Program-made: the position numbers and the translations under genes
Shown here: positions 5,309 to 24,236 of the stretch, piece after piece
Position numbering within the stretch: position 1 is the stretch's first letter
Layout of the letters: every line of letters begins with the position of its first letter
Assembly: GCA_024234055.1 (NCBI GenBank)
Contig: JACKOW010000001.1
Coordinates: forward strand, 828,874-892,873
Length of the DNA: 64,000 nt
Source: Rhodanobacteraceae bacterium
GTDB taxonomy: Bacteria; Pseudomonadota; Gammaproteobacteria; Xanthomonadales; SZUA-5
Direction of reading: 5' to 3'
The notes under the pieces: generated by a model
Told to the model about the DNA's origin: nothing
Database searches by the model: none
The model's input: only the letters and a program-made list of their open reading frames with translations

Positions 5309-5973
5309 TGCTTGTCTCCAGCCGGCGCGCGCAGCGCCCGCAAACTCAAATCCAGCCAGCACTCGAGGTAGCGATCCGGCTCGAAGGGGCGCTCGTCCAC
5401 GCGCCCCAGCGAGTGCAACCAGATCGGCATGAACACCAGTCCGTGAATCAGCACCCGCACCGCGTATTCGATATCCATGGGCGCAAATTCGCCCGAGGCC
5501 ACGCCCTTGCGCAGCACGGTAGCCAGCACGCCGTCCTGCATGCGGGCAATGAAGTTCACGACGAAGTGCCGGGCCAGCTCCGGAAAGTTGCCGGATTCGG
5601 ACATCATCAGCTTGGGCACACCCTGCATCGGTGAGGCGCTCAGCACCTGCCACCAGCGTCGGACGAAGCGCTCGATCAGCGTGCTGGCACTGATCCCGGG
5701 GTCGGCGATCGCTAGCGAGAACTCGGCCAGCAACGGGCCGATGTTGCGTCCCACGGCTTCCGCCAGCAGCGCTTCCTTGCTGTCGAAATACAGGTAGACC
5801 GTGCCCTTGCTGACGCCCGCGCGCTCGGCGACATCGTCCAGGCGCGTGGCTGCGAAACCCCGCTCCACAAACAGGCCCAAGGCCGCGTCGACAATCTCGG
5901 CGGGCCGCGCCTCCTTGCGCCTGCGTCTGGCTGGGCTTGGGTCCTTGCCCCGGTTGGCGGAAGAGTCGGACAT
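5305..5973 (-). CDS. TetR/AcrR family transcriptional regulator
   Basis: HTH region EIVDAALGLFVERGFAATRLDDVAERAGVSKGTVYLYF. Start MSDSSANRGK at 5973. It is the first gene of the tetR-MFP-ABC ATPase-permease operon. Confidence 0.85.
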   Translation of the reverse strand: MSDSSANRGKDPSPARRRRKEARPAEIVDAALGLFVERGFAATRLDDVAERAGVSKGTVYLYFDSKEALLAEAVGRNIGPLLAEFSLAIADPGISASTLIERFVRRWWQVLSASPMQGVPKLMMSESGNFPELARHFVVNFIARMQDGVLATVLRKGVASGEFAPMDIEYAVRVLIHGLVFMPIWLHSLGRVDERPFEPDRYLECWLDLSLRALRAPAGDKQ

Positions 5974-5990
5974 TGATCCATGTTTTAATA

Positions 5991-6004
5991 ACTGACCGGT
6001 CAGT
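5991..6004. promoter_or_regulatory. Perfect 14-bp palindrome ACTGACCGGTCAGT, candidate TetR operator, 18 bp upstream of the tetR start
   Basis: Seen in sequence. It is embedded in an AT-rich segment TTTTAATAACTGACCGGTCAGTAATTTACAT. Confidence 0.6.
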
Positions 6005-6186
6005 AATTTACATCGATCATAGGGCGGGCGCAAGTGCCCCGGAGTCACCTGTGCTGGCCAGCAGCTTGATGCTGTCGGCGCGTCCTGTGGTGTCGTGCTC
6101 GACAGCCCGCCCCCATGGACAACACAATGGCCGCGAGAGCGCCGCATAGCGGTCAGACCAGAACAGGGCCAGACAGGAGTGGCGGA

Positions 6187-7479
6187 ATGAACGCGGTGAT
6201 CTCCCTTGATCGACTCCGATTCGAGTTCAATCGGCTGCGCGAACGACTCTGGCTCAGGCCGCTGCTGATCTGTGTGTTGTCCATCGGCGCCGCCGTTGCC
6301 GCCCGGTTGGCCGATGGTCTGGGCCTGTCTCATCTGGTCCCGGAAATCACGGTCGATTCGGTGCAAAGCCTGCTGTCGATCATGGCGTCCAGCATGCTGG
6401 TGATCGCCACTTTCGCGCTGTCCTCGATGGTCTCTGCCTATGCCTCCGCCGCCGGCACCGCGACCCCGCGATCATTTCCGCTGGTGCTGGCCGATGATGG
6501 ATCGAAGAACGCCCTGTCCACCTTCATCGGTGCCTTCATCTTCAGCATCGTCGCGCTGGTGGCGACCAAGAACCATTATTTCGGGACAACCGGCATCTTC
6601 GTGCTCTTCCTGATCACGGTACTGGTGTTCGGAATCGTGGTGGTCACCTTCGTGCGCTGGAGCGACAGCATTGCCCGACTGGGGCGCCTCGGAAGCACCA
6701 TCGACAAGGTCGAGGCCGCCTGCGCCGCAGCCCTGCGCCGACGGCGCCACGCACCTACGCTGTGCGCCAGACTTCGCGCCGGTCAGGTTGGGGGACATGC
6801 CGTGCATACCCGCAGCATCGGTTATGTCCAGCATGTCGACATCAGTGCCCTGCAAGCGTGGGCCGAACGGCATCAGGCCTGGGTCGTGGTGGAGGTCCAG
6901 CCTGGAACGTTCGTCACCCCGGATCGACCCCTGGCGCTGATCAAGACCGACCAGGGCGAGGCACCGGAGGGCCCCACGGATGCCATCGTTGACGCCTTCA
7001 CGATCCACGGTGATCGCGTGTTCGAAGATGATCCGCGCTTCGGGCTGGTGGTGCTCTCGGAAATTGCAGCGCGGGCTCTGTCGCCTGCGGTCAATGACCC
7101 GGGTACGGCCATCGACACTATCGGCACGCTGGTGCGCCTGTTCTCGATCTGGATCGGCCCCGAGTCCGACAGCGCTCCTGCTGCGCCCGAATACGATCGG
7201 GTGTATGTGGCTGAACTGGCGGCTGGCGATCTGTTCGATGATGCCTTCAGCGCCATTGCCCGCGATGGTGCCGGGTCCGTTGAGGTAGGCCTGCGCCTGC
7301 AGAAGGCGCTGCTGGCGCTGGCGCGCATGGGCGACGAGACGGTGCGCAAGGCGGCGCGATCGCATTCGATTCTGGCGCTGAAGCGCGCCGAGTTGGCGCT
7401 GCAGCTGGACGAGGATCGTGAGCGCCTGCGCGCCGCCGCCGCCGAATGGGAATCGCTCTCGGTGGCTCCTGATTCCTGA
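6187..7479 (+). CDS. Membrane protein, DUF2254-like (4 N-terminal TM helices plus a soluble domain)
   Basis: Start MNAVISLDRL has GGAG SD. The TM segments match the predicted-membrane-protein family architecture. The family call is from memory and unverified. Confidence 0.5.
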   Translation: MNAVISLDRLRFEFNRLRERLWLRPLLICVLSIGAAVAARLADGLGLSHLVPEITVDSVQSLLSIMASSMLVIATFALSSMVSAYASAAGTATPRSFPLVLADDGSKNALSTFIGAFIFSIVALVATKNHYFGTTGIFVLFLITVLVFGIVVVTFVRWSDSIARLGRLGSTIDKVEAACAAALRRRRHAPTLCARLRAGQVGGHAVHTRSIGYVQHVDISALQAWAERHQAWVVVEVQPGTFVTPDRPLALIKTDQGEAPEGPTDAIVDAFTIHGDRVFEDDPRFGLVVLSEIAARALSPAVNDPGTAIDTIGTLVRLFSIWIGPESDSAPAAPEYDRVYVAELAAGDLFDDAFSAIARDGAGSVEVGLRLQKALLALARMGDETVRKAARSHSILALKRAELALQLDEDRERLRAAAAEWESLSVAPDS

Positions 7480-12387: not shown

Positions 12388-12445
12388 GGGGGCGCCCATC
12401 CGGGGGTCGGCGTCATTTTGCCCGGCCCAGGGTCGGTCGAACAGT

Positions 12446-12640
12446 CTGCCGTTGGTAGGAGCGACCTCGCGTCGCGATCGCAGTTGGAGTTCCTGCCACG
12501 AAAACCGGGAGCGGCGGCGAGCTGCCGCCTGAAGAGGACACGAAGGAAAGTCCGGCATTTGTAGGAGCGACCTTGCGTCGCGATCGCAGTTGGAGTCTTG
12601 CCACGAAAACCGGGAACGGCGGCGAGCTGTGGGCAGAAGC
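12446..12640. repeat. Two direct copies of a ~75-bp unit (GTAGGAGCGACCTCGCGTCGCGATCGCAGTTGGAGT..CCACGAAAACCGGGA.CGGCGGCGAGCTG), separated by ~45 bp
   Basis: Direct reading. REP and CAACCGA arrays follow at 12765-12870. Confidence 0.8.
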
Positions 12641-12903
12641 AGGACGCGAAGGACGCAGAGGAAAAGCAGAAAGGACGCGGAGAAGAGCCGGTGACTGTCG
12701 ATGATTGGACGCATGCTCTGCCGACACTGGCACTGACAACCGCTTTACCGGCCGCGGGTCTGATCGCGGACAGAGTCCGCTCCCACAGGCTGTCTGCTCT
12801 TTCCGACAACCGACAACCGACAACCGACAACCAGCAACCTGCTCTTGTGGGAGCGGGCTCTGCCCGCGATGCTGTCCTCACCCGCGATCTCCGGAGGAAC
12901 GCC

Positions 12904-14385
12904 ATGCGCCCCCTGATCCTCGCCCTCGACCAGGGCACGTCCAGCTCACGCTCGCTGCTGATCGACGATCGGGCCCGGATTGTCGCCAGCCACAGCGAGG
13001 CCTTTGACTGCGAGTACCCGCAGCCGGGCTGGGTTGAAGTCGATGCCGATCGACTGTGGCAGACGCAGCTCAGCTCGATCCGCTCGGTGCTGGCGCAGGC
13101 ACAGTTGCGGGCCGAGGCCATCAGCGCCATCGGCTTGACCAATCAGCGCGAGACCATCGTCGCCTGGGACAAGCGCAGCGGGGCGCCGCTGGGGCCGGCC
13201 ATCGTCTGGCAATGCCGGCGCACCGCGGCGGCCTGTAGCGTGCTCAGGGACCGAGGTATCGAGGCTGAGGTACGTGCGCGTACCGGTCTGCTGCTGGATC
13301 CGTATTTCTCGGCCACCAAGATGTGCTGGATGCTGGATCACTGGCCGCAAGCCCGAGTGCTCGCCGGGCAAGGGCGGCTGGCTTTCGGCACGGTCGACAG
13401 TTGGCTGGTCTGGCAGTTGAGCGGCGGCCGCGCCCATCTGACCGACGCCAGCAATGCCTCGCGCACGCTGCTCTACAACCTGCATCTGGGCGATTGGGAT
13501 CCGTGGCTGCTGGATCTGTTCGGCATCCCCGCCGAGGCCTTGCCGCAGGTGGTTGATTCCAGTGGCGTGTTGGCGCACACCGACGCCGCGGTTATCGGCG
13601 CGCGCATTCCGATCGCAGGTATGGCCGGAGACCAGCAGGCGGCGCTGTTCGGTCAGGCTTGCACGCGCCCGGGGATGGCCAAGAACACCTATGGCACCGG
13701 CTGCTTCCTGCTGCTCAACAGCGGCGATCAGCCGGTGCCGTCGAAGCACGGCTTGTTGACCACCGTGGCCTGGCAGCTCGCGGGTGCCCGCACCTATGCG
13801 CTGGAGGGCTCGGTGTTCGTCGCCGGGGCGCTGATCCAGTGGTTGCGCGATGAGCTGGGCCTGATCCGCCACGCCGCCGAGAGCGCCGAACTGGCCGCCA
13901 GCGTGACCGACAGCGGCGGTGTCAGCATCGTGCCGGCTTTCGTTGGCCTGGGTGCACCGCACTGGGACAGCGCCGCGCGCGGCCTGATTTGCGGACTGAC
14001 CCGCGGCAGTGGCAAGGCCCACATCGTCCGTGCTGCGCTGGAATCGGTGGCCTTGCAGAATGTCGAACTGCTGCACGCCATGCAGGGCGACACCGGCAGC
14101 GCACTCACCGAATTGCGTATCGATGGTGGCATGAGTGCCAATGATTTCCTCTGTCAGTTCCAGGCCGACGTGCTCGGCGTGGCCGTGTGCCGACCGGCGC
14201 AGCAGGAGAGCACCGGCCTCGGAGCGGGTTTGCTGGCTGGACTGGGCATCGGCCTTTGGCCCGACCTGCAGCATCTGGAGACGCTGTGGCGCGAGCAGCG
14301 TCGTTTTGTGCCGGAGATGTCGGGCACCGACCGGCAGCAACATCTGGCGCGATGGCACGCCGCCGTTGCCCGCGCCCGATGCTGA
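12904..14385 (+). CDS. glpK: Glycerol kinase
   Basis: FGGY motifs LALDQGTSSSR, NTYGTGCF, GDQQAAL. GGAGG SD lies 8 nt before ATG 12904. The ORF-table upstream extension is rejected. Confidence 0.9.
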   Translation: MRPLILALDQGTSSSRSLLIDDRARIVASHSEAFDCEYPQPGWVEVDADRLWQTQLSSIRSVLAQAQLRAEAISAIGLTNQRETIVAWDKRSGAPLGPAIVWQCRRTAAACSVLRDRGIEAEVRARTGLLLDPYFSATKMCWMLDHWPQARVLAGQGRLAFGTVDSWLVWQLSGGRAHLTDASNASRTLLYNLHLGDWDPWLLDLFGIPAEALPQVVDSSGVLAHTDAAVIGARIPIAGMAGDQQAALFGQACTRPGMAKNTYGTGCFLLLNSGDQPVPSKHGLLTTVAWQLAGARTYALEGSVFVAGALIQWLRDELGLIRHAAESAELAASVTDSGGVSIVPAFVGLGAPHWDSAARGLICGLTRGSGKAHIVRAALESVALQNVELLHAMQGDTGSALTELRIDGGMSANDFLCQFQADVLGVAVCRPAQQESTGLGAGLLAGLGIGLWPDLQHLETLWREQRRFVPEMSGTDRQQHLARWHAAVARARC

Positions 14386-14400: not shown

Positions 14401-15897
14401 TTACTCGAAACCGCTTTGGAAAAGCGTATCCGGCAGCAGGCGCTGGTCCGCCAGCGTGTTCAGATAGCACTCGAGGTTGCTGTAGCCGGCCACGCCGGTG
14501 AAGGCAATCGACAACTGGTCGCCGTTGTTGTCGGCTACCATCGGATCAAGCCCGAGGGCAGCCTGAGCCAGTTCGAATTCGTCCGGCATGCCATCGCCAT
14601 CGCTATCTTGCGGTGCCGCGGGTGGCGAGTCCGGATCAAAATCCAGATCAAAAGTGTCGTTGGCCAGCGGCGTGCCGTGGTCGATCGCCGGGAAGGACTG
14701 CGCCAGGGTGGAGTCCCGCCAACGCCGCTCCAAGGGGTCTGCAGGAAGGGCGCCCACACGGCCCGGAAGTTCGCCGGGCAAGCCGCTGCCAGGCCCATAG
14801 GCGATGGCGGGAAAGGACAGTCGCTGCGACCGCCGGTTGGCCACGCCCAGGTCGAGATTGGGGCCGTTGGCGGGAAAGTCATTGCAGCAATAGAACAGCT
14901 GGTAGTCGGACAGCGTGGGATAGGCGGAGAGCTGGTTGTCGCTGACGAATAGCTGGTTGGTGGCGACATCGAGCAGATCGTGCAGGAACATGCCATAGGG
15001 ATAGCCTGGCCGGGTCAGGAAGCGATTGCCGACGGCATTGATCTGCACCTGGTAGGCCCCGGCAGCAGGATTCTGGTCCACGTCGCGGTTGTACCAGACC
15101 AGAAACCCCGGATCGGCATACAGATTGTTGCTGAGTTCCAATTGCAGCGGCGTGGACTGACAGCTCTGGATCAGCCCTGGAAGACCGTCATAGTTGCTCG
15201 CCTCGCAGGTGATCTCCGGTGTCCGGCCACCCACCCGATACCAGAGATTGCGTATCAGCGCGATACGGTCCTGTGGGTGATCGGGATGAGAATAGTTGAG
15301 CAGCACGCCGCCACGGTCGGCGTGTTCACCCACCGTCTCGCCGAGCATGGAATCCTGCACCGTGATATCGGAGGCCCAGCTGATCTGCAGTGCCTCGTCA
15401 GTGGCATGCGCCAGTGTCAGATGATCGAAGATGGCCAGATGGATGCCGTCCAGTCTGAGGGCGTCGTCCAGGCGTTCGCCGCCAGGCGGCACGGGCAGAT
15501 TCCAGCCAGGGCGCGTGCGCAAATGCCGCACGATCAAGTTGTCGCATGAGTTCTGTTCGTAGTGACCGTCGCAGATCAGGCCGCGAACGATGATGCCGCC
15601 CGGGGACGTCTGGCCAGCGATGGTGAGGTCGCCGTGGACGATGTTGGCAATCCCGTGGATCACGCCGCTGACATCGAATACCACCGTGCGCGGTCCGCTC
15701 TGCCGCAGCGCCCAGTTCAGCGAACCCGGCTGGGTGCCGGCGGGATCCGGGGAGAGCGTCGTGACGTGCAGCACGACCCCGCCGCGCCCGCCCGTGGCGG
15801 CGGCACCGAAGCCCTCGGCGCCCGGAAATGCGGGGATCTGACCCAAAGCCGGCATCGCGCAGAGCGCCAGATACAAAAAGCAGGATAAACGCATCAT
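14401..15897 (-). CDS. Secreted pectate-lyase-like (PL1-type parallel beta-helix) protein with C-terminal Asp-rich Ca-binding/dockerin-like motif
   Basis: Signal peptide MMRLSCFLYLALCAMPALG. N-terminal AEGFGAAATGGRGGVVLHVTTL..GSLNWAL resembles the pectate lyase signature. C-terminal DSDGDGMPDEFE. Ends ..LFQSGFE. Confidence 0.6.
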   Translation of the reverse strand: MMRLSCFLYLALCAMPALGQIPAFPGAEGFGAAATGGRGGVVLHVTTLSPDPAGTQPGSLNWALRQSGPRTVVFDVSGVIHGIANIVHGDLTIAGQTSPGGIIVRGLICDGHYEQNSCDNLIVRHLRTRPGWNLPVPPGGERLDDALRLDGIHLAIFDHLTLAHATDEALQISWASDITVQDSMLGETVGEHADRGGVLLNYSHPDHPQDRIALIRNLWYRVGGRTPEITCEASNYDGLPGLIQSCQSTPLQLELSNNLYADPGFLVWYNRDVDQNPAAGAYQVQINAVGNRFLTRPGYPYGMFLHDLLDVATNQLFVSDNQLSAYPTLSDYQLFYCCNDFPANGPNLDLGVANRRSQRLSFPAIAYGPGSGLPGELPGRVGALPADPLERRWRDSTLAQSFPAIDHGTPLANDTFDLDFDPDSPPAAPQDSDGDGMPDEFELAQAALGLDPMVADNNGDQLSIAFTGVAGYSNLECYLNTLADQRLLPDTLFQSGFE

Positions 15898-15911
15898 GGC
15901 AAGGTGCCCCT

Positions 15912-17261
15912 TCACTCGAAGCCGTCACGCAGAAGCAGATCGGGAGTCAACTCGTAGGCGCCGATGTCGACGTTGGCGCCCTGTAGCCGGTCATGCCCGT
16001 CCAGATCTTCCACCGCCAGTCCGCTTGGAATCAACATCGTTCCCGAGTCGATGCCCGCAGACTCCGGAGCAAGTCGGTAGTCATTGACGCCACGAAAGCT
16101 CGGGCTGGCAAGGCCGAGATCCGAGCCCAGATTTTGGCTGGCGCTCACCGCCGCCAGACTGCTCGGCAAGCCATTGTCCTCAAAGATGCTGTTGTGTACG
16201 GCCACGCCCGGCGTGCCGAAAATCTGCAGTGCTCTGGAGGCATGATTGACGACCGTCAGGTTGCTGAGATCGGCCAGTGCCAGCGAGGAACTGCCGGTGA
16301 CAGTGATTCCACTCTGCGGTCCGGAATGCAGCAGGCTGCTGCTGACACTGACGGTGGCCTGATCGGAGACGCTGATCGCCAGTTGACTGCTTCCAGCTGG
16401 TGCGGCCGGGGCGAGATTGTCGTGCAGATTCAGGCGCGTCAGCGATATCAGCGAGCTGCCGCCGGCGGACGCGGCCAAGGCTGTGCCGAAGACACTGGTG
16501 GCGGCGCTGCTGGCTGAATGAACTTCAACCTGGCGAGCAGAAATCCGCCCCTGACCCTGGGTGATGAGGTTGACTGCCGTGCCTTCCGTCTGGTTGAGCG
16601 CCTGCGCCTGCAGGGAAGTGAGCAACAGACTGTCGAGTATCACCTGCGCGCGTTGCTGGCTGAGAATCTTCAGACCCACACCAAAGGCGACGCTGGGATG
16701 GGTGTTGGTGCAGTTCTGGATCTGGCTGTCGTAGAAGGACAGGAAACTGTCGTCATTGGCGTTGAATTGAACGCAGCCGCCGTCCGTGGCCGAACTGCTG
16801 CTGTCGCGCAGGCTCAGTTGCCCAAGGATGGCGCTGGCCGTGCCGTTCAGCGTCACCATCATGGTCGCCACCTGCGCCACTGAGCTTCCGCCGCGCAGCT
16901 GCAGGCGCGTCAACAGCAAGCTGCCGCCGCTCAGTTGCGCACTGAAGACGCGTCCGCTCGATGACGCATCGAGCACGGTAGCCGCGCCCTGACTGGTGAA
17001 ACTGGCATCCCAGCCGCCACTGATGCTGAGATCGTTGCCGCTGAGATCGCCAGCGATCAGCGTCGTGCCGATGAGCGTGCCGGCCTGCACCCGAAGTTCG
17101 TCCGCGCCGGGCATTCCCAGCGCAGCTGCAACCGCTGATTGCAGGCTGGCATGGGCGCCACTGGGTCCTACCGTGATCACGGCAGCCCCGGCCAGCGGTG
17201 CCGCCGAACTCAACACCGCACCCCACCATGCCGCGACCACAACCCATCTCCATTGCCGCAT
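15912..17261 (-). CDS. Secreted parallel beta-helix repeat protein with choice-of-anchor-Q-like DIGAYE motif
   Basis: Signal peptide and Ser/Thr/Asn-rich beta-helix repeats. C-terminal GANVDIGAYELTP..LLRDGFE. Confidence 0.55.
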   Translation of the reverse strand: MRQWRWVVVAAWWGAVLSSAAPLAGAAVITVGPSGAHASLQSAVAAALGMPGADELRVQAGTLIGTTLIAGDLSGNDLSISGGWDASFTSQGAATVLDASSSGRVFSAQLSGGSLLLTRLQLRGGSSVAQVATMMVTLNGTASAILGQLSLRDSSSSATDGGCVQFNANDDSFLSFYDSQIQNCTNTHPSVAFGVGLKILSQQRAQVILDSLLLTSLQAQALNQTEGTAVNLITQGQGRISARQVEVHSASSAATSVFGTALAASAGGSSLISLTRLNLHDNLAPAAPAGSSQLAISVSDQATVSVSSSLLHSGPQSGITVTGSSSLALADLSNLTVVNHASRALQIFGTPGVAVHNSIFEDNGLPSSLAAVSASQNLGSDLGLASPSFRGVNDYRLAPESAGIDSGTMLIPSGLAVEDLDGHDRLQGANVDIGAYELTPDLLLRDGFE

Positions 17262-17458
17262 ATGGCCTCCCTTGGCTTCCAGCGTGCGGGAGAGCTTGCG
17301 ACGGTCGGCAAGACGGCGTTAGGACGGGTGCGCCAATGATCAGGACTTGGGCGACTTTGGCACCATGCGTGCTCGCCGTTGGCACCTGGGGGCAAGCGTC
17401 GGGAACAGGAAATTGCCGTCTATGAACATGAACACCGCCGAACAGCCGAGATGTTCGC

Positions 17459-18838
17459 TTAATGGTCGATTTCGCCGTGTCCGATGGCTGGTTCTGCTGA
17501 GGGCGCGTGTCCGAAGGCCAGTCGATAGCGTCGGGAGAAATAGGACAGGTCCTCGAAGCCCACTCGGCTCGCTACCTCGCCTACCCGATAACGCCCGCTG
17601 CGCAACAAGGTTCGGGCCGTTTGCAGTCGGGCCACCAGAACCAACTCCTGCGGGCTGGTATTCAGGGCCGCCTTCAGGCGGCGCTGCAGCGTGCGCGGCG
17701 AGACATGAAAGTGCTCGGCGAGGGCAGCAGGCGTCAGCGCCTCATGCAGGTGCAGTCGTACATGAGCCAGCACGGCATCGGCAAACTCGCGGTCACGAAT
17801 CCCGCCTTGCTCCAGAGCCGGGTCTTCGTCGCTGGGGGAGAGCACGGGCGCGATCGGCGTGGGCGTTTCATCGCCTGAGGGCGTCAGCCGGCTCAGCAGG
17901 GTGCGCAACTGCCGCCGGTATCGTGCTCGGATCCAGACTGCACACCCCAAACCCGGCACCAGGCCCGCCAAGCCAAACAGCAGCAGCATCCGGGGTGTGC
18001 CGAAGTCTTGCAGCATGGCGTCCCAGACCTCAGGTTGGCCGGTCAGGGTCAGTCGTCGCCAGCGCTCGGGATAGCCAAAATCAGTGTCGCCCGACCAGCT
18101 GCGCGGCAGCACCTCCCTGCCTACCGCCGCATCGGCAGGCTCTGGCGCCCCCGGTCTTTGTGCCAGCAGGCGCACCCGTTCCGCCGTCAGAGCCTGAGTA
18201 CTGCCCGGCGGGTGTTCGACCAACCAGTCGTTGTAAACCACATCGATACCCAGTGCGCTGCCGGACATCGGTGTCAGGCCGAGTCCGGCAAATGGAATGC
18301 GCAACTCAAACGTCCAGCCGCTGGCATGTATTTGCGCCGCGTACTCCACCGGCAAGGGTGCCGACTGCCGTTGCGGCACCGTGGCACCCACGAGCGTGCC
18401 GATCAGGCTGTCGCCGCGCAAGACCCCCTGTCGTCCATCCGGCAACAGGAGCAGATCGACGTCATCGTCGTTCATGCTTGGCCCGCCGTCCGCCAGCGCA
18501 TCCAGATAGATCTGCGCCGAGTCGTACTGGTGATAGCGGTCGACGTCCAGGTCTTTCGGTGCCGCGATCAAGGCAGTGTCGTTGACTATCCCGGCCACGA
18601 ACAGGTTGTCGTGGTCCCAGCACAATCGCAGTTCCACCCTCGGCGTGCCGGCAGGTGTCGCAGTGGCTTCGATGATCTGGCCCGCATACCAGGGACTGCG
18701 CCATTCGCTGACATTGCCGTCGATCAGCGGGGAAAAGCGGCGATAGGGGATGGCCGCATCTCCGCCATCTGCCGCAAGCGTGTGGCCGGTCGCAAGCCAG
18801 CCCAGCAGCAAGGAAACACACCAAAGACTGAAGCGCAC
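17459..18838 (-). CDS. AraC-family regulator with N-terminal periplasmic CBM9/DOMON-like sensor domain and a single TM helix
   Basis: C-terminal HTH_AraC (..LAEHFHVSPRTLQRRLK..VGEVASRVGFEDLSYFSRRYRLAFG), a TM segment MLLLFGLAGLVPGLGCAVWI, a periplasmic domain with WDHDNLFVAGIVND, and an N-terminal signal. The start is uncertain: GTG at 18838 gives a plausible signal peptide, while ATG 19039 would overlap metF. Confidence 0.6.
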   Translation of the reverse strand: MRFSLWCVSLLLGWLATGHTLAADGGDAAIPYRRFSPLIDGNVSEWRSPWYAGQIIEATATPAGTPRVELRLCWDHDNLFVAGIVNDTALIAAPKDLDVDRYHQYDSAQIYLDALADGGPSMNDDDVDLLLLPDGRQGVLRGDSLIGTLVGATVPQRQSAPLPVEYAAQIHASGWTFELRIPFAGLGLTPMSGSALGIDVVYNDWLVEHPPGSTQALTAERVRLLAQRPGAPEPADAAVGREVLPRSWSGDTDFGYPERWRRLTLTGQPEVWDAMLQDFGTPRMLLLFGLAGLVPGLGCAVWIRARYRRQLRTLLSRLTPSGDETPTPIAPVLSPSDEDPALEQGGIRDREFADAVLAHVRLHLHEALTPAALAEHFHVSPRTLQRRLKAALNTSPQELVLVARLQTARTLLRSGRYRVGEVASRVGFEDLSYFSRRYRLAFGHAPSAEPAIGHGEIDH

Positions 18839-18939
18839 CTTGGATTTTCTCGCCAACGAGGATGGAGGACTGTGTTGCCCCGCCAGCGGCGCTCCCGTCA
18901 GACGATTCGCGTACCGTTCGACCAAGGCATCCGCCGGGA

Positions 18940-19767
18940 TCAGGCGCCGATGCGCTCCAGGATGTTCATCGTAGCCTTGGCCCGGTTCAGCGTATAGAAG
19001 TGCAAGGACGGCGCGCCGGCGTTGATCAGCCGCAGGCACAGGGCCGACACCACCTCAGCCCCCAGTTCGCGGATTGACTCGACGTCGTCGCCATAGGATT
19101 GCATCCGGCGCTCGATCCAGCGCGGAATCTCGGCGCCGCACTGGTCGGAAAAGCGCTTCAGCTGGCTGAAATTGCCGATGGGCATGATGCCCGGCACGAT
19201 CGGCACCGTGACCCCCAGCGCCCGGACATCGCGCACGAAGCGCTCGTAAGCCTCGGCATTGAAGAAGTACTGGGTGATGACGCCATTGGCGCCGGCCGCT
19301 ACCTTCTGCACCAGATGGCGCAGGTCTTCATCCGCGCTGCGCGCCTGCGGGTGGAATTCCGGATAACCCGCTACCTCGATATGGAAGTAGCCGTCGAACT
19401 CACTGCGAATGAAGCGCACGAGATCGATGGCATGACGGAATTCGCCGGCCGTGGCCATGCCCGAGGGCATGTCGCCGCGCAGCGCCACGATGCGACGGCA
19501 GCCCAGATCCACGTATCGCTGCAGCAGTTCGCGAATCTCTTCGCGCGTTCCGCCCAGGCAAGACAGGTGCGGCGCCACTTCCAGACCCTGGATCTGCCGC
19601 AGCCCTACGACCGTGTCGTAGGTGTAGCTCAGCGTGGAACCGCCGGCACCAAAGGTCACACTGACGTAATCAGGCGAGTGTGACTTCAGCATCTCGGCGG
19701 TGCGCGTCAGCGCCTCGCGCTGATCCGGGGTCTTGGGTGGGAAAAACTCGAAGCTCAGCGGCAACAT
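18940..19767 (-). CDS. metF: 5,10-methylenetetrahydrofolate reductase
   Basis: Start MLPLSFEFFPPKT at 19767. Conserved MetF motifs throughout. Confidence 0.9.
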   Translation of the reverse strand: MLPLSFEFFPPKTPDQREALTRTAEMLKSHSPDYVSVTFGAGGSTLSYTYDTVVGLRQIQGLEVAPHLSCLGGTREEIRELLQRYVDLGCRRIVALRGDMPSGMATAGEFRHAIDLVRFIRSEFDGYFHIEVAGYPEFHPQARSADEDLRHLVQKVAAGANGVITQYFFNAEAYERFVRDVRALGVTVPIVPGIMPIGNFSQLKRFSDQCGAEIPRWIERRMQSYGDDVESIRELGAEVVSALCLRLINAGAPSLHFYTLNRAKATMNILERIGA

Positions 19768-19849
19768 GGGCGGTACAGACGTCCAGACATCCGCCCGATT
19801 GGCGGTAGCTGGATACTCGCCGCAGAGGGTACATCGGGGCAAGCGCGGC

Positions 19850-20075
19850 ACATCCTGCCGAGCAAGCTCGGCACTACGAAAGCCTCGTACACAGCAGCTG
19901 TCGTAGAGCGGAGCTTGCTCCGCTGCTTCTGCCGGGCTTTTCGGCTCTGCACCATGCCCAGGAGCCGCACATCCTGCCGAGCAAGCTCGGCACTACCAGA
20001 GCCTCGTACACAGCAGCTGTCGTAGAGCGGAGCTTGCTCCGCTGCCTTTGCCGGGCTTTTCCACGCTTGCGCACT
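19850..20075. repeat. Two direct ~100-bp REP-like units (CATCCTGCCGAGCAAGCTCGGCACTAC..CTCGTACACAGCAGCTGTCGTAGAGCGGAGCTTGCTCCGCTGC)
   Basis: Direct reading. The units contain hairpins GCCGAGCAAGCTCGGC and GAGCGGAGCTTGCTCCGCTC. Related copies occur at 50890-51170 and 57115-57190. Confidence 0.8.
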
Positions 20076-21480: not shown

Positions 21481-21926
21481 AGGCTTGTTGTGGGGAAGGT
21501 CATGTGTGGGAAGGGCCTTCGACGCGGGGGCAGAGGATCTTGCGTTGCTGAAGAGACCGAAATCCGGCCACTCTGCGAGTGGTACCGATCATTCGCGCAA
21601 ACGCCCTCGAACTATCAACCCCAGGCCAGCGCAGACCCCGCAGCACCGAGAGCCTGTGGCGGGCGGTATGCGCGCAGTATTTCCGGTCGGACGGCTTCAA
21701 TCCCTTGTCGCAAAACAGTCACGGGCTCTCGCATGGGACGGTGCCTCTGCAGCCAGAGGATGTTGGCACTCTAGAGTAAATGTACTTGATTGTTAATTCT
21801 AGCTTGCCTATTCTTCACGCAGCGTTTCGCATGACCCTGGCCCTCGCGTACTCGGCACTCCAGATTGCGGCCATTCGCTGCCATCGGTTTCGCCAGTCAG
21901 CCAGTCTCAACCAAAGGAAATCTGCC

Positions 21927-24236
21927 GTGTCTCTCGTCTCCAGATTGTGCGTGCTTCTCGCGTGCTTCTGCGTATTGCCTTCACTGGGCGCGCAAAATCC
22001 ACGGCCGCTCCCTTTCCCGAACCTTGATATCTGGGCGAGCGGTGCAGTCCGGGCCGTCGCGGCTACGCCCGATGGTGGATTCGTGATTGGCGGTGACTTC
22101 ACCTTGGTCCAGGGGTTGGCTCGTCGAAATCTGGCGAAAATCATGGCCAATGGCTTGGTGGACCCCAACTGGAATCCATTGCTCGCTGGCAGCTTTCCTT
22201 CGGTCCAGGCACTGGCAGTTGCCAGCAATGGCGACGTTTACATTGGCGGCGACTTCGAAAGCGTCGGTGGAGTGCTGCGAAATCGGCTCGCGAAGCTGAG
22301 TGCTTCGGGCGTGCTTGACAGCAACTGGGATCCTGCTGCCGTCGACGGCATCTCCAACGCGCGCATTCTCGCCCTGGCATTGGCAGGCGATCAGCTGATT
22401 GTTGGTGGCAGATTCACTTTCATCGGTGGCCAGAGCCGGAATCGCCTGGCCAAACTTTCAACCTCGGGAGCCGGCGCCGCCGATCCAGCGTGGAATCCGT
22501 CGTCGCTGAGTTCCGATGTGCATGCACTGGCCTTCGATGGTAGCCAGTTTGTCTATCTGAATCAGCGATTCGACGGCCTACAGGGTGTCAGCCGCATTGC
22601 GGTCGCGGGCTCCGGGGCCGCGGATGCAAACTGGAACGTCCTGACCGATGCGGCCGTGAGCGCCATGGCTCTGGGTGGGAATGACAGCATCTACATCGGC
22701 GGCTCTTTCACTCTGGTACAGAGCACGGCAAGGTCAGGATTGGCAAGATTGGGCACAGCCAGCCAGGCGGTTCTCGATCCCGCCTGGACTCCTGCCGTGG
22801 CTGGATACGTGCAGACTTTGTTGCGGGTTGGCAGTGATCTTTACGTGGCTGGTCGCTTCAGCAGCATTGCAGGGGAATCGAGAACACAACTGGCGCGCGT
22901 CGGCCTGTTGGGTTCTGGCGTTGTTGACCCGGGATGGATGCCCAGTGCCCTAGGGGGATCCGTGAACGTGATGGCCCGGGAGTCCTCTGGGCGCATCATC
23001 GTCGGCGGTGAGTTCACTCAGATCAACGCTCAGGCGCGATCGGGCTTGGCTGTTCTGGACGGTGCGAGCGGCGCGCCCAGCGCCGCCACTGATGTCGAAC
23101 AGCCGGTGCGGTCACTGGCTGCGATGGCAACCCTGCCAGACCAAAGCTTGTTGATCGGTGGTCGATTCTCCCGGATCGGCGGGTTTCATCGACAGAATCT
23201 GGTTCGACTGCTTCCCGGCGGCAGCGTTGATACGGCTTGGGGTGCCGATGTACAGGGCGTGGCTGTTCCCTATCTTCAGCCGCCTGGAGAGCCTGGTGGC
23301 TTCGACTACGTCATCTCGGTTTGGAAACTTCTGGTGGACGCCGCAGGGCGCGTCTACGTCGGCGGCACCTTCGAGCAAGTAGGCGGCGTGAGTCGAAGAA
23401 ACCTGGCGCGAATCGGCACCGACGGTCAGCTTGACCTGGGCTGGGTAGCCGATGCCGACGGCGCGGTGGCAGCAATGGCATTCGACGCTTCCGAACAGCT
23501 TCTTGTCGGCGGCAACTTCAGCACGCTGGCAGGCCAGCCACGCGGAAGCCTGGCGAAATTGGGGACGGGGGCCGCAGCTACACTTGATGCAAGCTGGGTG
23601 CCCACGCTGAGTCTTGGGGCGCTGCCCAGCGTGCTACTCCCTGATGGCGCCGGTAGTGTGTTTCTTGGCGGTGCCTTCAACGTCGTCAACGGCGAAAATT
23701 GCTGCACAGGGATTGCCAAGTTGTCGGCCACGGGCGCCGGTCTTCGCGACACCAGCTGGAATATCAATCTCAGTGGATCCCAGCGGAGCATCAATGCGCT
23801 CGCCCTGGATGGCGCCGGCAACATTTACCTGGCCGGAAACTTCAGCGGGCTCAGCCAAGCCGGAAATTCCTTCGTCCGTCAGGGCCTGGCCCGGGCGCTC
23901 GCAAGTGGTGCCGGCGACATTGATCCGGTGTGGAGCCCCCAACAACTCGCCTTTGGCTACGCCAGTTTGGCACTTCCGGGTGACGGGCGCATTTACGTCG
24001 TCAGTGGCATCTGGTTTCCCGGTTGGGTTTTTGCGCTCTCTACCAGTGGCACCGGCCTATGGGACCAGAGTTGGAATGTGACGAGCAATGGCTCGCTTTT
24101 CCAAATTTTGGCGGCCGGCAACACCTTGTACGTCGGCGGCTCATTTACGGCTATTGGTGGACAGCCTCGCCAAGGGATTGCGGCCTTTCCGCTGGACGGG
24201 TTGTTCGGCGATGGCCTGGAAGACAGGGTGCAGTAG
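21927..24236 (+). CDS. Secreted delta-60-repeat (beta-propeller-type) protein
   Basis: About 14 repeats of a motif like ..VGG.F..VGG..R..LA+L...G.LD..W.. GTG start at 21927 has an AGGA SD and signal peptide VSLVSRLCVLLACFCVLPSLGA (alternative ATG 21831). Confidence 0.55.
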   Translation: MSLVSRLCVLLACFCVLPSLGAQNPRPLPFPNLDIWASGAVRAVAATPDGGFVIGGDFTLVQGLARRNLAKIMANGLVDPNWNPLLAGSFPSVQALAVASNGDVYIGGDFESVGGVLRNRLAKLSASGVLDSNWDPAAVDGISNARILALALAGDQLIVGGRFTFIGGQSRNRLAKLSTSGAGAADPAWNPSSLSSDVHALAFDGSQFVYLNQRFDGLQGVSRIAVAGSGAADANWNVLTDAAVSAMALGGNDSIYIGGSFTLVQSTARSGLARLGTASQAVLDPAWTPAVAGYVQTLLRVGSDLYVAGRFSSIAGESRTQLARVGLLGSGVVDPGWMPSALGGSVNVMARESSGRIIVGGEFTQINAQARSGLAVLDGASGAPSAATDVEQPVRSLAAMATLPDQSLLIGGRFSRIGGFHRQNLVRLLPGGSVDTAWGADVQGVAVPYLQPPGEPGGFDYVISVWKLLVDAAGRVYVGGTFEQVGGVSRRNLARIGTDGQLDLGWVADADGAVAAMAFDASEQLLVGGNFSTLAGQPRGSLAKLGTGAAATLDASWVPTLSLGALPSVLLPDGAGSVFLGGAFNVVNGENCCTGIAKLSATGAGLRDTSWNINLSGSQRSINALALDGAGNIYLAGNFSGLSQAGNSFVRQGLARALASGAGDIDPVWSPQQLAFGYASLALPGDGRIYVVSGIWFPGWVFALSTSGTGLWDQSWNVTSNGSLFQILAAGNTLYVGGSFTAIGGQPRQGIAAFPLDGLFGDGLEDRVQ

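Follow-up and report, generated by a model that had tools for sequence, protein, structure and literature searches.

Transmembrane transcription regulators, which combine a DNA-binding domain with one or more transmembrane segments in a single polypeptide, are common; among them, ToxR, CadC and TcpP are one-component, single-pass proteins whose sensor is external and whose DNA-binding domain is cytoplasmic (survey in PMC10269533). In ToxR-type proteins, an N-terminal winged helix of the OmpR type lies inside the cell and a C-terminal sensor lies outside it. The hybrid two-component systems (HTCS) of Bacteroides have a periplasmic glycan sensor of the beta-propeller/Y_Y_Y kind, a transmembrane segment, histidine-kinase, phosphoacceptor and receiver domains and a C-terminal AraC helix-turn-helix (HTH), and control adjacent genes for polysaccharide degradation. 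The single-pass RsgI anti-sigma factors of Clostridium thermocellum use a CBM fold as their external sensor (CBM3, CBM42 or PA14) and govern genes for secreted CAZymes, acting via the sigma factor SigI as partner. AraC and XylS are soluble proteins that bind their ligand and dimerise through an N-terminal domain in the cytoplasm and bind DNA through a C-terminal one with two HTH motifs; their operators (I1-I2 for AraC, Pm for XylS) are direct repeats 21 bp apart, centre to centre, with two sub-boxes each, placed at the −35 element. The regulator described here has the same type of C-terminal DNA-binding domain as AraC and XylS and a predicted operator like theirs, but it senses through a periplasmic domain of CBM9 fold that is connected via a transmembrane helix.

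Within the 64-kb window (the whole stretch of DNA that was analysed), the minus strand carries three co-oriented genes, encoding this regulator, a beta-helix protein and a PL1-like lyase; the open reading frames (ORFs) were found as the initial annotation had listed them, and so were the sequence strings it quoted. The regulator CDS (459 aa; positions 17459–18838, minus strand) is defined by its ORF, by matches to Pfam CBM9_1 and HTH_18/HTH_AraC and by an AF2 model (pLDDT 84), and a TTG at 18856 is an alternative start that would add six residues (MARKSK). The secreted beta-helix protein (449 aa; 15912–17261, minus strand) is supported by its ORF, Pfam/NCBIfam profiles and orthologues, and is preceded by the ribosome-binding site AAGGGAGG at 17266–17273. 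The secreted PL1-like polysaccharide lyase (498 aa; 14401–15897, minus strand) is assigned from sequence, profile and structure matches. Its ORF extends over 14401–15915 and the ATG at 15897 is the better start, with a GAAGGGG ribosome-binding site in front and a position 14 nt past the upstream stop; the representative of its cluster, P0037, is 498 aa long. A search of the region for known RNA elements gave no Rfam match at E up to 1. At a probability of roughly 0.6, we propose that the regulator is a one-component transmembrane activator that senses a periplasmic oligosaccharide and switches on the operon of the other two genes from an AraC/XylS-type tandem site.

Hydropathy of the regulator, whose sequence includes LCWDHDNLFVAGIVND, peaks at residues 3–23 and 285–303. 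The first peak is signal-like and corresponds to a predicted Sec signal peptide at residues 1–23 (18770–18838, minus strand), to which an AF2 helix at residues 2–17 also points and whose cleavage motif, TLA/AD, was assigned from the sequence. The second corresponds to a single transmembrane helix at about residues 283–305 (17924–17992, minus strand; hydropathy 2.13) within an unbroken helix at 281–318 of the AF2 model. Directly after it come a basic juxtamembrane helix, RARYRRQLR, and a variable Pro/Ala-rich linker, with about 40 residues between transmembrane helix and HTH, and then the cytoplasmic AraC/XylS DNA-binding domain of ~100 aa with its two HTH motifs (residues 346–448; 17495–17803, minus strand; Pfam HTH_18 on residues 373–448, E 6.7e-21). 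Hydropathy, the positive-inside rule and the AF2 model agree with the order given in the initial annotation (signal peptide, external domain, transmembrane helix, cytoplasmic AraC HTH), and we predict a type-I single-pass inner-membrane protein with the CBM9-fold domain in the periplasm and the AraC domain in the cytoplasm. Like ToxR, CadC and TcpP, it would sense outside and bind DNA inside; unlike ToxR-type proteins, it has a cleavable signal peptide, an AraC-type DNA-binding domain by Pfam and an inverted domain order, and the earlier description of its topology as the reverse of ToxR was apt. That description had also called the topology unusual for AraC regulators, a claim we do not retain: the architecture is not unique, and an AraC HTH is also present in 53 of the 60 nearest relatives of the sensor that were scanned. 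A literature search for CBM9 together with AraC returned no relevant paper. Like the HTCS, the regulator would combine a periplasmic glycan sensor, a transmembrane segment and a C-terminal AraC HTH and would control adjacent polysaccharide-degradation genes, and the best PDB sequence match to its cytoplasmic part is an HTCS (12aw). In contrast to the HTCS, no kinase, phosphoacceptor, receiver or beta-propeller/Y_Y_Y domain was recognised in it by Pfam, with HisKA/HATPase_c and receiver domains giving no match at E up to 1, and it differs from RsgI in carrying the DNA-binding domain on the same polypeptide and in having a CBM9-like module.

The linker bears on how the signal would cross the membrane. 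Ligand binding might trigger site-1 and site-2 cleavage and free a soluble AraC domain, as opposed to DNA binding by a tethered protein; other regulators with a membrane tether are known to undergo regulated proteolysis (reviewed in PMC7593790), and the segment between transmembrane helix and DNA-binding domain is long and variable, with a pLDDT of 42–43 at residues 320–345. However, the module includes no conserved protease gene, ToxR, CadC and many other transmembrane regulators act tethered (PMC10269533, PMC10629549), and conservation of the basic juxtamembrane helix hints at conformational coupling; we regard release by proteolysis as quite unlikely. We infer that the regulator acts while membrane-bound, and as an activator rather than a repressor.

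The periplasmic CBM9-fold sensor domain covers about residues 28–268 (18035–18757, minus strand). Pfam CBM9_1, of the DOMON-like clan, matches residues 40–204 (E 8.5e-10; 39.3 bits against a cut-off of 23.4), 29 residues are invariant across relatives at 35–69% identity, and a family-specific insertion of ~40 residues (about 205–245) is modelled by AF2 at low confidence. CBM9 modules grip sugar chain ends with an aromatic clamp, formed by Trp71/Trp175 in TmCBM9-2 and by Tyr89/Trp191 in CBM9.3. The first clamp position (Trp71 and Tyr89, respectively; PMC8280721) aligns with a near-invariant His103 in the sensor (Tyr in P0034); the second lies beyond the sequence alignment, with F254 and W248 in the equivalent loop, and Asp and Leu stand opposite CBM9 Gln96 and Arg98. 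These replacements make canonical cellulose/xylan end-binding unlikely. Compared with CBM9-2 of Thermotoga maritima Xyn10A (1i82), the sensor also differs in its insertion, in the transmembrane helix that follows it and in its place outside an enzyme: its host protein is a regulator, whereas a CBM9 in the CAZy sense is a module inside a carbohydrate-active enzyme. Of the carbohydrate-binding-like signature that the initial annotation had noted, the family assignment holds, with CBM9_1 above its cut-off; carbohydrate binding itself is putative, and the first clamp aromatic is replaced by His.

With the same architecture and regulon, the domain could also sense something other than sugar, be it a metal (Ca2+), the exported regulon proteins (for example by their ...GFE tail) or a non-carbohydrate small molecule. 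The substitutions of canonical ligand residues (Trp to His, Gln to Asp, Arg to Leu) would fit such a ligand, as would an unusual richness in invariant Asp, the conserved C-terminal ...GFE tag common to the beta-helix protein and the lyase, and the haem and other ligands bound by the wider fold class (fold-search ranks 3, 5, 15 and 19). Distant family members without adjoining CAZymes point the same way: in the distant CBM9-AraC loci L024 (Bacteroidota) and L025, the neighbours are lipoproteins or fibre-like proteins and no CAZymes are recognisable, but these loci are uninformative on the ligand because their neighbours are not lyases. We consider a non-sugar signal unlikely, and a carbohydrate the probable ligand.

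The regulator gene is found together with the lyase and/or beta-helix gene in 13 of 15 distinct Lysobacterales loci, the other two being one whose contig ends first and one orphan regulator. All three genes are present in the window and in L001, L003, L005, L007 and L022; regulator and lyase are paired in L009, L011 (Ahniella affigens), L015, L016 and L021; in L010 the regulator is followed by the lyase, with the beta-helix gene in divergent orientation to the regulator; in L008 the regulator is accompanied by two copies of the beta-helix gene; and L017 has the regulator without target genes. Flanking genes are unrelated and differ from locus to locus. An alignment of nine loci places a predicted operator of 37 bp in the window at 17322–17358 (minus strand), with direct-repeat half-sites 21 bp apart (AAAGTCGCCCAAGTCC-TGATC-ATTGGCGCACCCGTCC, then TAAC). 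Its conserved form is two direct repeats of approximately ATTGnCGCnnnnGTCC, 21 bp apart and followed by CTAAC, ~56–70 nt ahead of the first target gene, and each half-site consists of two sub-boxes about one helical turn apart, a tandem geometry that matches AraC/XylS half-sites at the level of sequence. In leave-out matrix scans, the operator was the top match of the whole window (21.2 against 14.1) and the intergenic tandem site ranked first in seven of nine loci, and, with the first loci as the basis of the matrix, it also came first in five of six new ones (25–36 against 7–18 for the runners-up).

The tandem site accompanies the regulator in 13 of 15 loci with its geometry fixed (in L009 the proximal half-site alone is clear), and it moves with the target gene when gene order changes: in L010, the top match faces the divergent beta-helix gene instead, and in L008 a second copy lies ahead of the second beta-helix gene. 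It is missing where either partner is missing, a matrix scan finding no tandem site in the orphan-regulator locus L017 or the regulator-less lyase locus L012; in the regulator-less L013, the best match (18.5) is ~3.5 kb away from the lyase gene. These observations tell against an adjacency that is coincidental or historical, with the tandem repeat serving another regulator. Such an explanation could draw on L017, which keeps the regulator without targets, and we hold it to be very improbable. Conserved synteny and the conserved tandem operator instead support the regulatory link between regulator and lyase locus that the initial annotation had drawn.

We take direct repeats spaced by 21 bp and adjoining a −35 element to be the AraC I1-I2/XylS arrangement. 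Positional conservation suggests a candidate −10-like hexamer, CAAGCT, at 17293–17298 (minus strand), the orthologous positions reading CAGGCT, CAAGCT or CAATGx; a search for a consensus sigma-70 promoter found none, and two terminator-like matches are at chance level. Upstream of the regulator gene, no operator-like site indicative of autoregulation was found in any locus, and the operator scan revealed no further regulon members above random expectation within the window. With these domain folds, gene linkage, fixed operator geometry and predicted topology, the module most likely operates as a self-contained sense-and-secrete unit. Once the signal peptide is cleaved, the CBM9-fold domain would lie in the periplasm and the AraC domain in the cytoplasm on a flexible linker. 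A saccharide, most likely an oligosaccharide freed outside the cell by basal lyase activity and recognised by its chain end as in CBM9, would bind the CBM9-like cleft and alter how two regulator molecules are paired or oriented; the two DNA-binding domains would occupy both half-sites, 21 bp apart and abutting the −35 of the beta-helix gene promoter, and the two-gene operon would be transcribed (beta-helix protein, then PL1-like lyase) and both products exported. Should this be confirmed, it would amount to a very compact path from external polysaccharide to gene expression, with CBM-fold sensor and AraC output in one protein and a 37-bp operator, and a proteobacterial one-component counterpart to the Bacteroides hybrid two-component systems and the clostridial RsgI-CBM sensors; the regulator could then be a portable biosensor part. 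Ahniella affigens (CP027860) is cultured and carries the regulator–lyase pair, with C7S18_00650 as the regulator gene, and the hypothesis is therefore directly testable.

The lyase, whose sequence includes PGAEGFGAAATGGRGG and DSDGDGMPDEFE and ends in ...TLFQSGFE, had been annotated as pectate-lyase-like, and profile and structure comparisons support this. PfPL1 (PDB 9buj) matches it with a phmmer E of 1.5e-18 and an hhalign probability of 99.6% over 264 columns, and all 25 top Foldseek matches of its model (pLDDT 92) against the PDB are PL1 enzymes, with which it shares a homologous right-handed parallel beta-helix. In common with PL1 subfamily 2 (PfPL1, PelZ and BT_4115), it has the N-terminal AEGFG..TGGRGG, acidic residues, a catalytic Arg in R-T-P context and, at the C-terminus, a helical decoration bearing an EF-hand-like Ca2+ loop, at an aligned identity of 31% (hhalign) or 19% (Foldseek alignment). 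R231 aligns with R220 of PfPL1, the catalytic Arg that serves as Bronsted base in PL1. PfPL1 has the same residue as the lyase at the positions of D151, D164, D173 and E174, and a Glu at that of D150; R231 and the acidic residues are invariant in 35 sequences. The family departs from PL1 subfamily 2 in an invariant RxPE instead of RTPR and in three invariant Cys pairs, including a vicinal CC, and the second basic residue of PL1 (RxPxxR/RTPR) is absent, invariant Glu234 aligning with R223 and Ala239 with R228. Pfam Pec_lyase_C does not match the protein, and the PelZ equivalog NF041900 reaches 53.6 bits, far under its cut-off of 840, over the N-terminal 157 residues only. PL1 enzymes act on polyuronides by beta-elimination, and lyase activity on a polymer substrate is the probable function here. 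The Asp-rich motif in DSDGDGMPDEFE had been called dockerin-like, a reading we rejected: dockerins carry a duplicated 22-residue Ca2+-binding segment (Pfam Dockerin_1), whereas here there is no Dockerin match at E up to 1 and the loop, DxDxDGxPDxFE, is single-copy and invariant. TSP3_bac matches weakly (E 0.0067, under its cut-off), and by its sequence the motif is an EF-hand/TSP3-like Ca2+ loop; the C-terminus of PfPL1 carries a pseudo-EF-hand Ca2+ site (PMC11229556).

Instead of an external polymer such as pectin, the operon might act on the cell's own surface or biofilm polysaccharide, in remodelling or dispersal, for which the PL1 capsule depolymerase VexL is a model. Among the structural matches to the lyase, VexL ranks second; the RxPE variant and the invariant Glu234/Glu238 suggest that the substrate differs from classical homogalacturonan; and no uronate uptake or catabolic genes stand beside the module in any locus. 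Polysaccharide-synthesis genes are equally absent beside it, however, bar unrelated glycosyltransferases upstream in L011, and members of the lyase family from different phyla are 55–80% identical, pointing to a substrate that is common and widespread. A target on the producing cell is possible but doubtful. The lyase family, with >5000 database relatives, is widespread without the CBM9-AraC regulator, and, if the present reading is confirmed, would be flagged as an abundant and highly conserved PL1-like group for substrate discovery. On a wider scale, we tentatively suggest that CBM9–transmembrane–AraC proteins may be an unrecognised class of transmembrane glycan sensors of the one-component type, in Proteobacteria and further afield, with the CBM reading oligosaccharide chain ends in the periplasm and driving transcription directly, free of any kinase or sigma-factor relay, and that the lyases with RxPE and three invariant Cys pairs may form a distinct PL1-related family whose substrate would be new to PL1, possibly a bacterial exopolysaccharide.

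The beta-helix protein contains DIGAYE, has a choice-of-anchor Q/DIGAYE C-terminal cap and ends in ...LLLRDGFE. NCBIfam choice_anch_Q (NF041518) matches residues 392–438 at 30.1 bits against a cut-off of 25, while Pfam Beta_helix stays under its cut-off (E 0.0011) and the profile of the protein, compared with the PDB, gives only a marginal match to a pectinesterase N-cap (E 0.0097). A paralogous relationship with the lyase was ruled out (hhalign probability 0.7%). Orthologues are 27–75% identical, and across the loci this middle gene is optional, the lyase being the commoner partner of the regulator.

Three co-oriented genes occupy 14401-18838 on the minus strand of the window; the observation of the initial annotation is confirmed and its interpretation essentially supported, with corrections. 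They encode a membrane-bound AraC-type regulator, a secreted beta-helix protein and a PL1-like lyase, and are flanked on one side by metF (18940-19851, minus), on the other by a glycerol kinase gene that converges on them (12598-14385, plus). We put at roughly 60% the probability that the regulator directly activates the operon in response to a saccharide. The window has a G+C content of ~64%, and the named relatives nearest to it are MAGs of uncultured Lysobacterales (Xanthomonadales).

The regulator (459 aa, 17459-18838, minus) matches CBM9_1 over residues 40-204 (E 8.5e-10, above cut-off) and HTH_18/HTH_AraC over residues 373-448 in Pfam. Hydropathy and the AlphaFold2 model bear out the proposed order of signal, external domain, transmembrane (TM) segment and cytoplasmic AraC helix-turn-helix (HTH). 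An N-terminal hydrophobic segment carries a TLA|AD cleavage-type motif (an alternative TTG start at 18856 would make the n-region more basic), and a single strong TM segment at 285-303 is followed by five basic residues, placing the C-terminal part in the cytoplasm. The model (33 homologues as input, mean pLDDT 84) comprises a beta-sandwich (~28-268), an unbroken helix (281-318), a disordered linker and a seven-helix AraC domain; a rival mechanism is that proteolysis frees this DNA-binding domain.

The carbohydrate-binding-like signature initially claimed for the sensor stands in so far as CBM9_1 is matched, but the canonical ligand residues are altered in profile alignment to two solved CBM9s, Thermotoga maritima TmCBM9-2 and CBM9.3. 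The first clamp aromatic (Trp71 in TmCBM9-2, Tyr89 in CBM9.3; roles per PMC8280721) corresponds to His103, a nearly invariant residue replaced by Tyr in the homologue that diverges most; Glu77, Gln96 and Arg98 correspond to Gln109, Asp127 and Leu. The loop of the second clamp residue, not alignable by sequence, holds an invariant F254 and a near-invariant W248. A cleft is thus probably kept, with a specificity that must differ from that for cellulose or xylan ends. A saccharide ligand is plausible and slightly favoured, the rival being that the regulator senses a non-sugar signal.

With just the sensor domain as query, exhaustive HMMER searching returned 275 cluster representatives at E ≤0.001; in ~35 of these, proteins 415-540 aa long, the match spans the full sensor. 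Lyase-tied regulators form a small subfamily confined to Lysobacterales. The architecture had been called unusual; it is not unique, since an AraC HTH was found by Pfam scan in 53 of 60 proteins (the window protein and 59 matches), Bacteroidota proteins among them. The CBM9-AraC architecture is therefore a real, recurrent and uncharacterised family, for which we found no paper. The system is a variation on known kinds: AraC regulators, transmembrane one-component regulators and CBM-based sensors. As a broader class, transmembrane transcription regulators are widespread (PMC10269533). Distant CBM9-TM-AraC proteins also lie beside other secreted or envelope proteins, pointing to reuse of the architecture for other regulons: at 8001-9602 of L025, a locus in a 66% G+C MAG, the neighbours are two lipoproteins and a probable outer-membrane protein, and at 5551-6876 of L024, in a Bacteroidota MAG, Peptidase_S74 fibre-like proteins. 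L025 also has a tandem match to the operator matrix described below (score 22.8, at 5487, minus strand).

We gathered 15 distinct regulator loci, all Lysobacterales-type, by looking up exact proteins and by scanning each GTDB species through one genome. Regulator, beta-helix gene and lyase occur together in the window and in L001, L003, L005, L007 and L022; regulator and lyase alone in L009, L011, L015, L016 and L021. L010 has the beta-helix gene divergent from the regulator, then the lyase; L008 has a tandem pair of beta-helix genes, of which the second carries frameshifts, and no lyase gene; the contig of L020 ends just past the operator. Because flanking genes vary between loci, the module moves as a unit. 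Both downstream genes are present in the window as first described, but across loci the lyase accompanies the regulator more often, the beta-helix gene being optional. L017 has a full-length orthologous regulator on its own (5950-7302), immediately behind metF just like that of the window, and the next gene encodes a flavin oxidoreductase of the OYE type; operator, beta-helix gene and lyase are all absent, suggesting that the operon was lost or relocated at a conserved insertion point.

The intergenic regions downstream of the regulator, otherwise unalignable, share one tandem direct repeat, the predicted operator: two copies of a half-site of approximately ATTGnCGCnnnnGTCC spaced by exactly 21 bp, the proximal one continuing into CTAAC, with a CAGGCT/CAAGCT/CAATGx element ~20 nt on. 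It lies 56-70 nt before the first target start codon in most loci (80-87 nt in L010 and L011). In leave-out tests it was the top tandem match of the entire locus in seven of nine loci, among them the window over its whole 64 kb (21.2 vs 14.1). The matrix from those loci gave top rank, in five of six later-found loci, to the site immediately downstream of the regulator (scores 25-36, runners-up 7-18) and gave no operator in the sixth, the orphan L017; nor did scanning find one upstream of the lyase in regulator-less loci. The operator follows its target upon gene-order change: the best match in L010 faces the divergent beta-helix gene, and L008 carries a second copy before its second beta-helix gene. 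This second tandem operator and CTAAC promoter region fall within 10961-12072 of L008, where the frameshift-split paralogue reflects a pseudogene or long-read assembly errors.

A single AraC-type domain contacts, through its two recognition helices, two DNA sub-boxes about one helical turn apart; each half-site here consists of two such sub-boxes, TTGnCGC and GTCC, at about that distance. AraC I1-I2 and XylS sites are direct repeats abutting the -35 element, with the same 21-bp spacing as the predicted operator. No consensus sigma-70 promoter is present, which fits, and does not prove, an activator-dependent promoter. In our view it is very likely that the regulator controls the operon directly, and probable that it activates rather than represses. 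The system gains in value because its operator prediction is clear and testable and because one of its hosts, Ahniella affigens (L011), is cultured and has a complete genome.

The lyase (498 aa from an ATG preceded by a GAAGGGG ribosome-binding site; 14401-15897, minus) was rightly recognised as pectate-lyase-like. Its N-terminal 176 residues match PfPL1 (PDB 9buj, PL1 subfamily 2; phmmer E 1.5e-18), hhalign of a 35-sequence family alignment to PfPL1 gives 99.6% probability over 264 columns, and the best 25 Foldseek PDB matches of its AlphaFold2 model (pLDDT 92, pTM 0.90) are all PL1 enzymes, with PfPL1 and the capsule depolymerase VexL on top. Pfam Pec_lyase_C gave no match, and the PelZ score falls far under threshold. 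The catalytic base R220 of PfPL1 aligns with R231; D151, D164, D173 and E174 are identical in PfPL1, and D150 corresponds to Glu, all six being invariant in the family. Unlike PL1_2, the family has an invariant Glu234 where PfPL1 has R223 (RxPE, not RTPR), an invariant Glu238 and three invariant cysteine pairs (115/124, 237/252 and vicinal 343/344). None of these six cysteines occurs in PfPL1, and a vicinal pair is unusual among PL1 enzymes. The Asp-rich DSDGDGMPDEFE, initially read as dockerin-like, is by Pfam scan not a dockerin; it is one invariant EF-hand/TSP3-like loop. PfPL1 has a C-terminal pseudo-EF-hand (PMC11229556). The family is large (>5000 matches), strikingly conserved (55-80% identity) and reaches Acidobacteriota and Chloroflexi, where an adjacent regulator of this type is absent.

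The beta-helix protein (449 aa, 15912-17261, minus) shows no sequence relationship to the lyase, and the idea that the two are paralogues was rejected. Its features include a signal peptide, an N-cap (AAVxTVGPxGxHATLQxA), an ISGGWD motif and a C-terminal cap (DYRL..SxGIDxG..D..G..R....DIGAYE) reaching the NCBIfam choice-of-anchor Q cut-off; Pfam Beta_helix is marginal. Orthologues diverge fast (27-75% identity) and their central turns share few invariant residues, which argues against a conserved catalytic centre. Rather than serving foraging, the operon may remodel the cell's own polysaccharide, a rival to our reading of its role.

The C-terminus h-L-F-x-(N/S/D)-G-F-E-COOH is common to the two regulon proteins (window 14401-14424 and 15915-15938) and their orthologues, and large unrelated secreted proteins of these Lysobacterales loci have the same tail: Rax2-like, FG-GAP, 1397-aa and 752-aa proteins (tail-related proteins at L005 13473-15692, L007 13373-16594, L011 12490-16683, L017 8569-10827 and window 21780-24236). 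The last is a secreted 818-aa protein with many ~50-residue repeats (..GGxFxxVGGxxRxxLAKL..D..W.P..), of the same kind as the Rax2-like 737-aa protein near the L005 module, and ends ...LFGDGLEDRVQ. In Chloroflexi homologues FADDFES..W runs on into a further domain. The GFE tail may be a C-terminal tag for sorting or secretion that is specific to the lineage, or what is left of a first strand. REP-like repeats occur in the intergenic region that precedes the glycerol kinase gene (window 12443-12639 and 12763-12870), where two copies of a ~92-nt unit (GTAGGAGCGACCTCGCGTCGCGATCGC...) are 106 nt apart; the region also contains an inverted repeat of 25 nt (TGTGGGAGCGGGCTCTGCCCGCGAT) and a run of CCGACAA heptamers.
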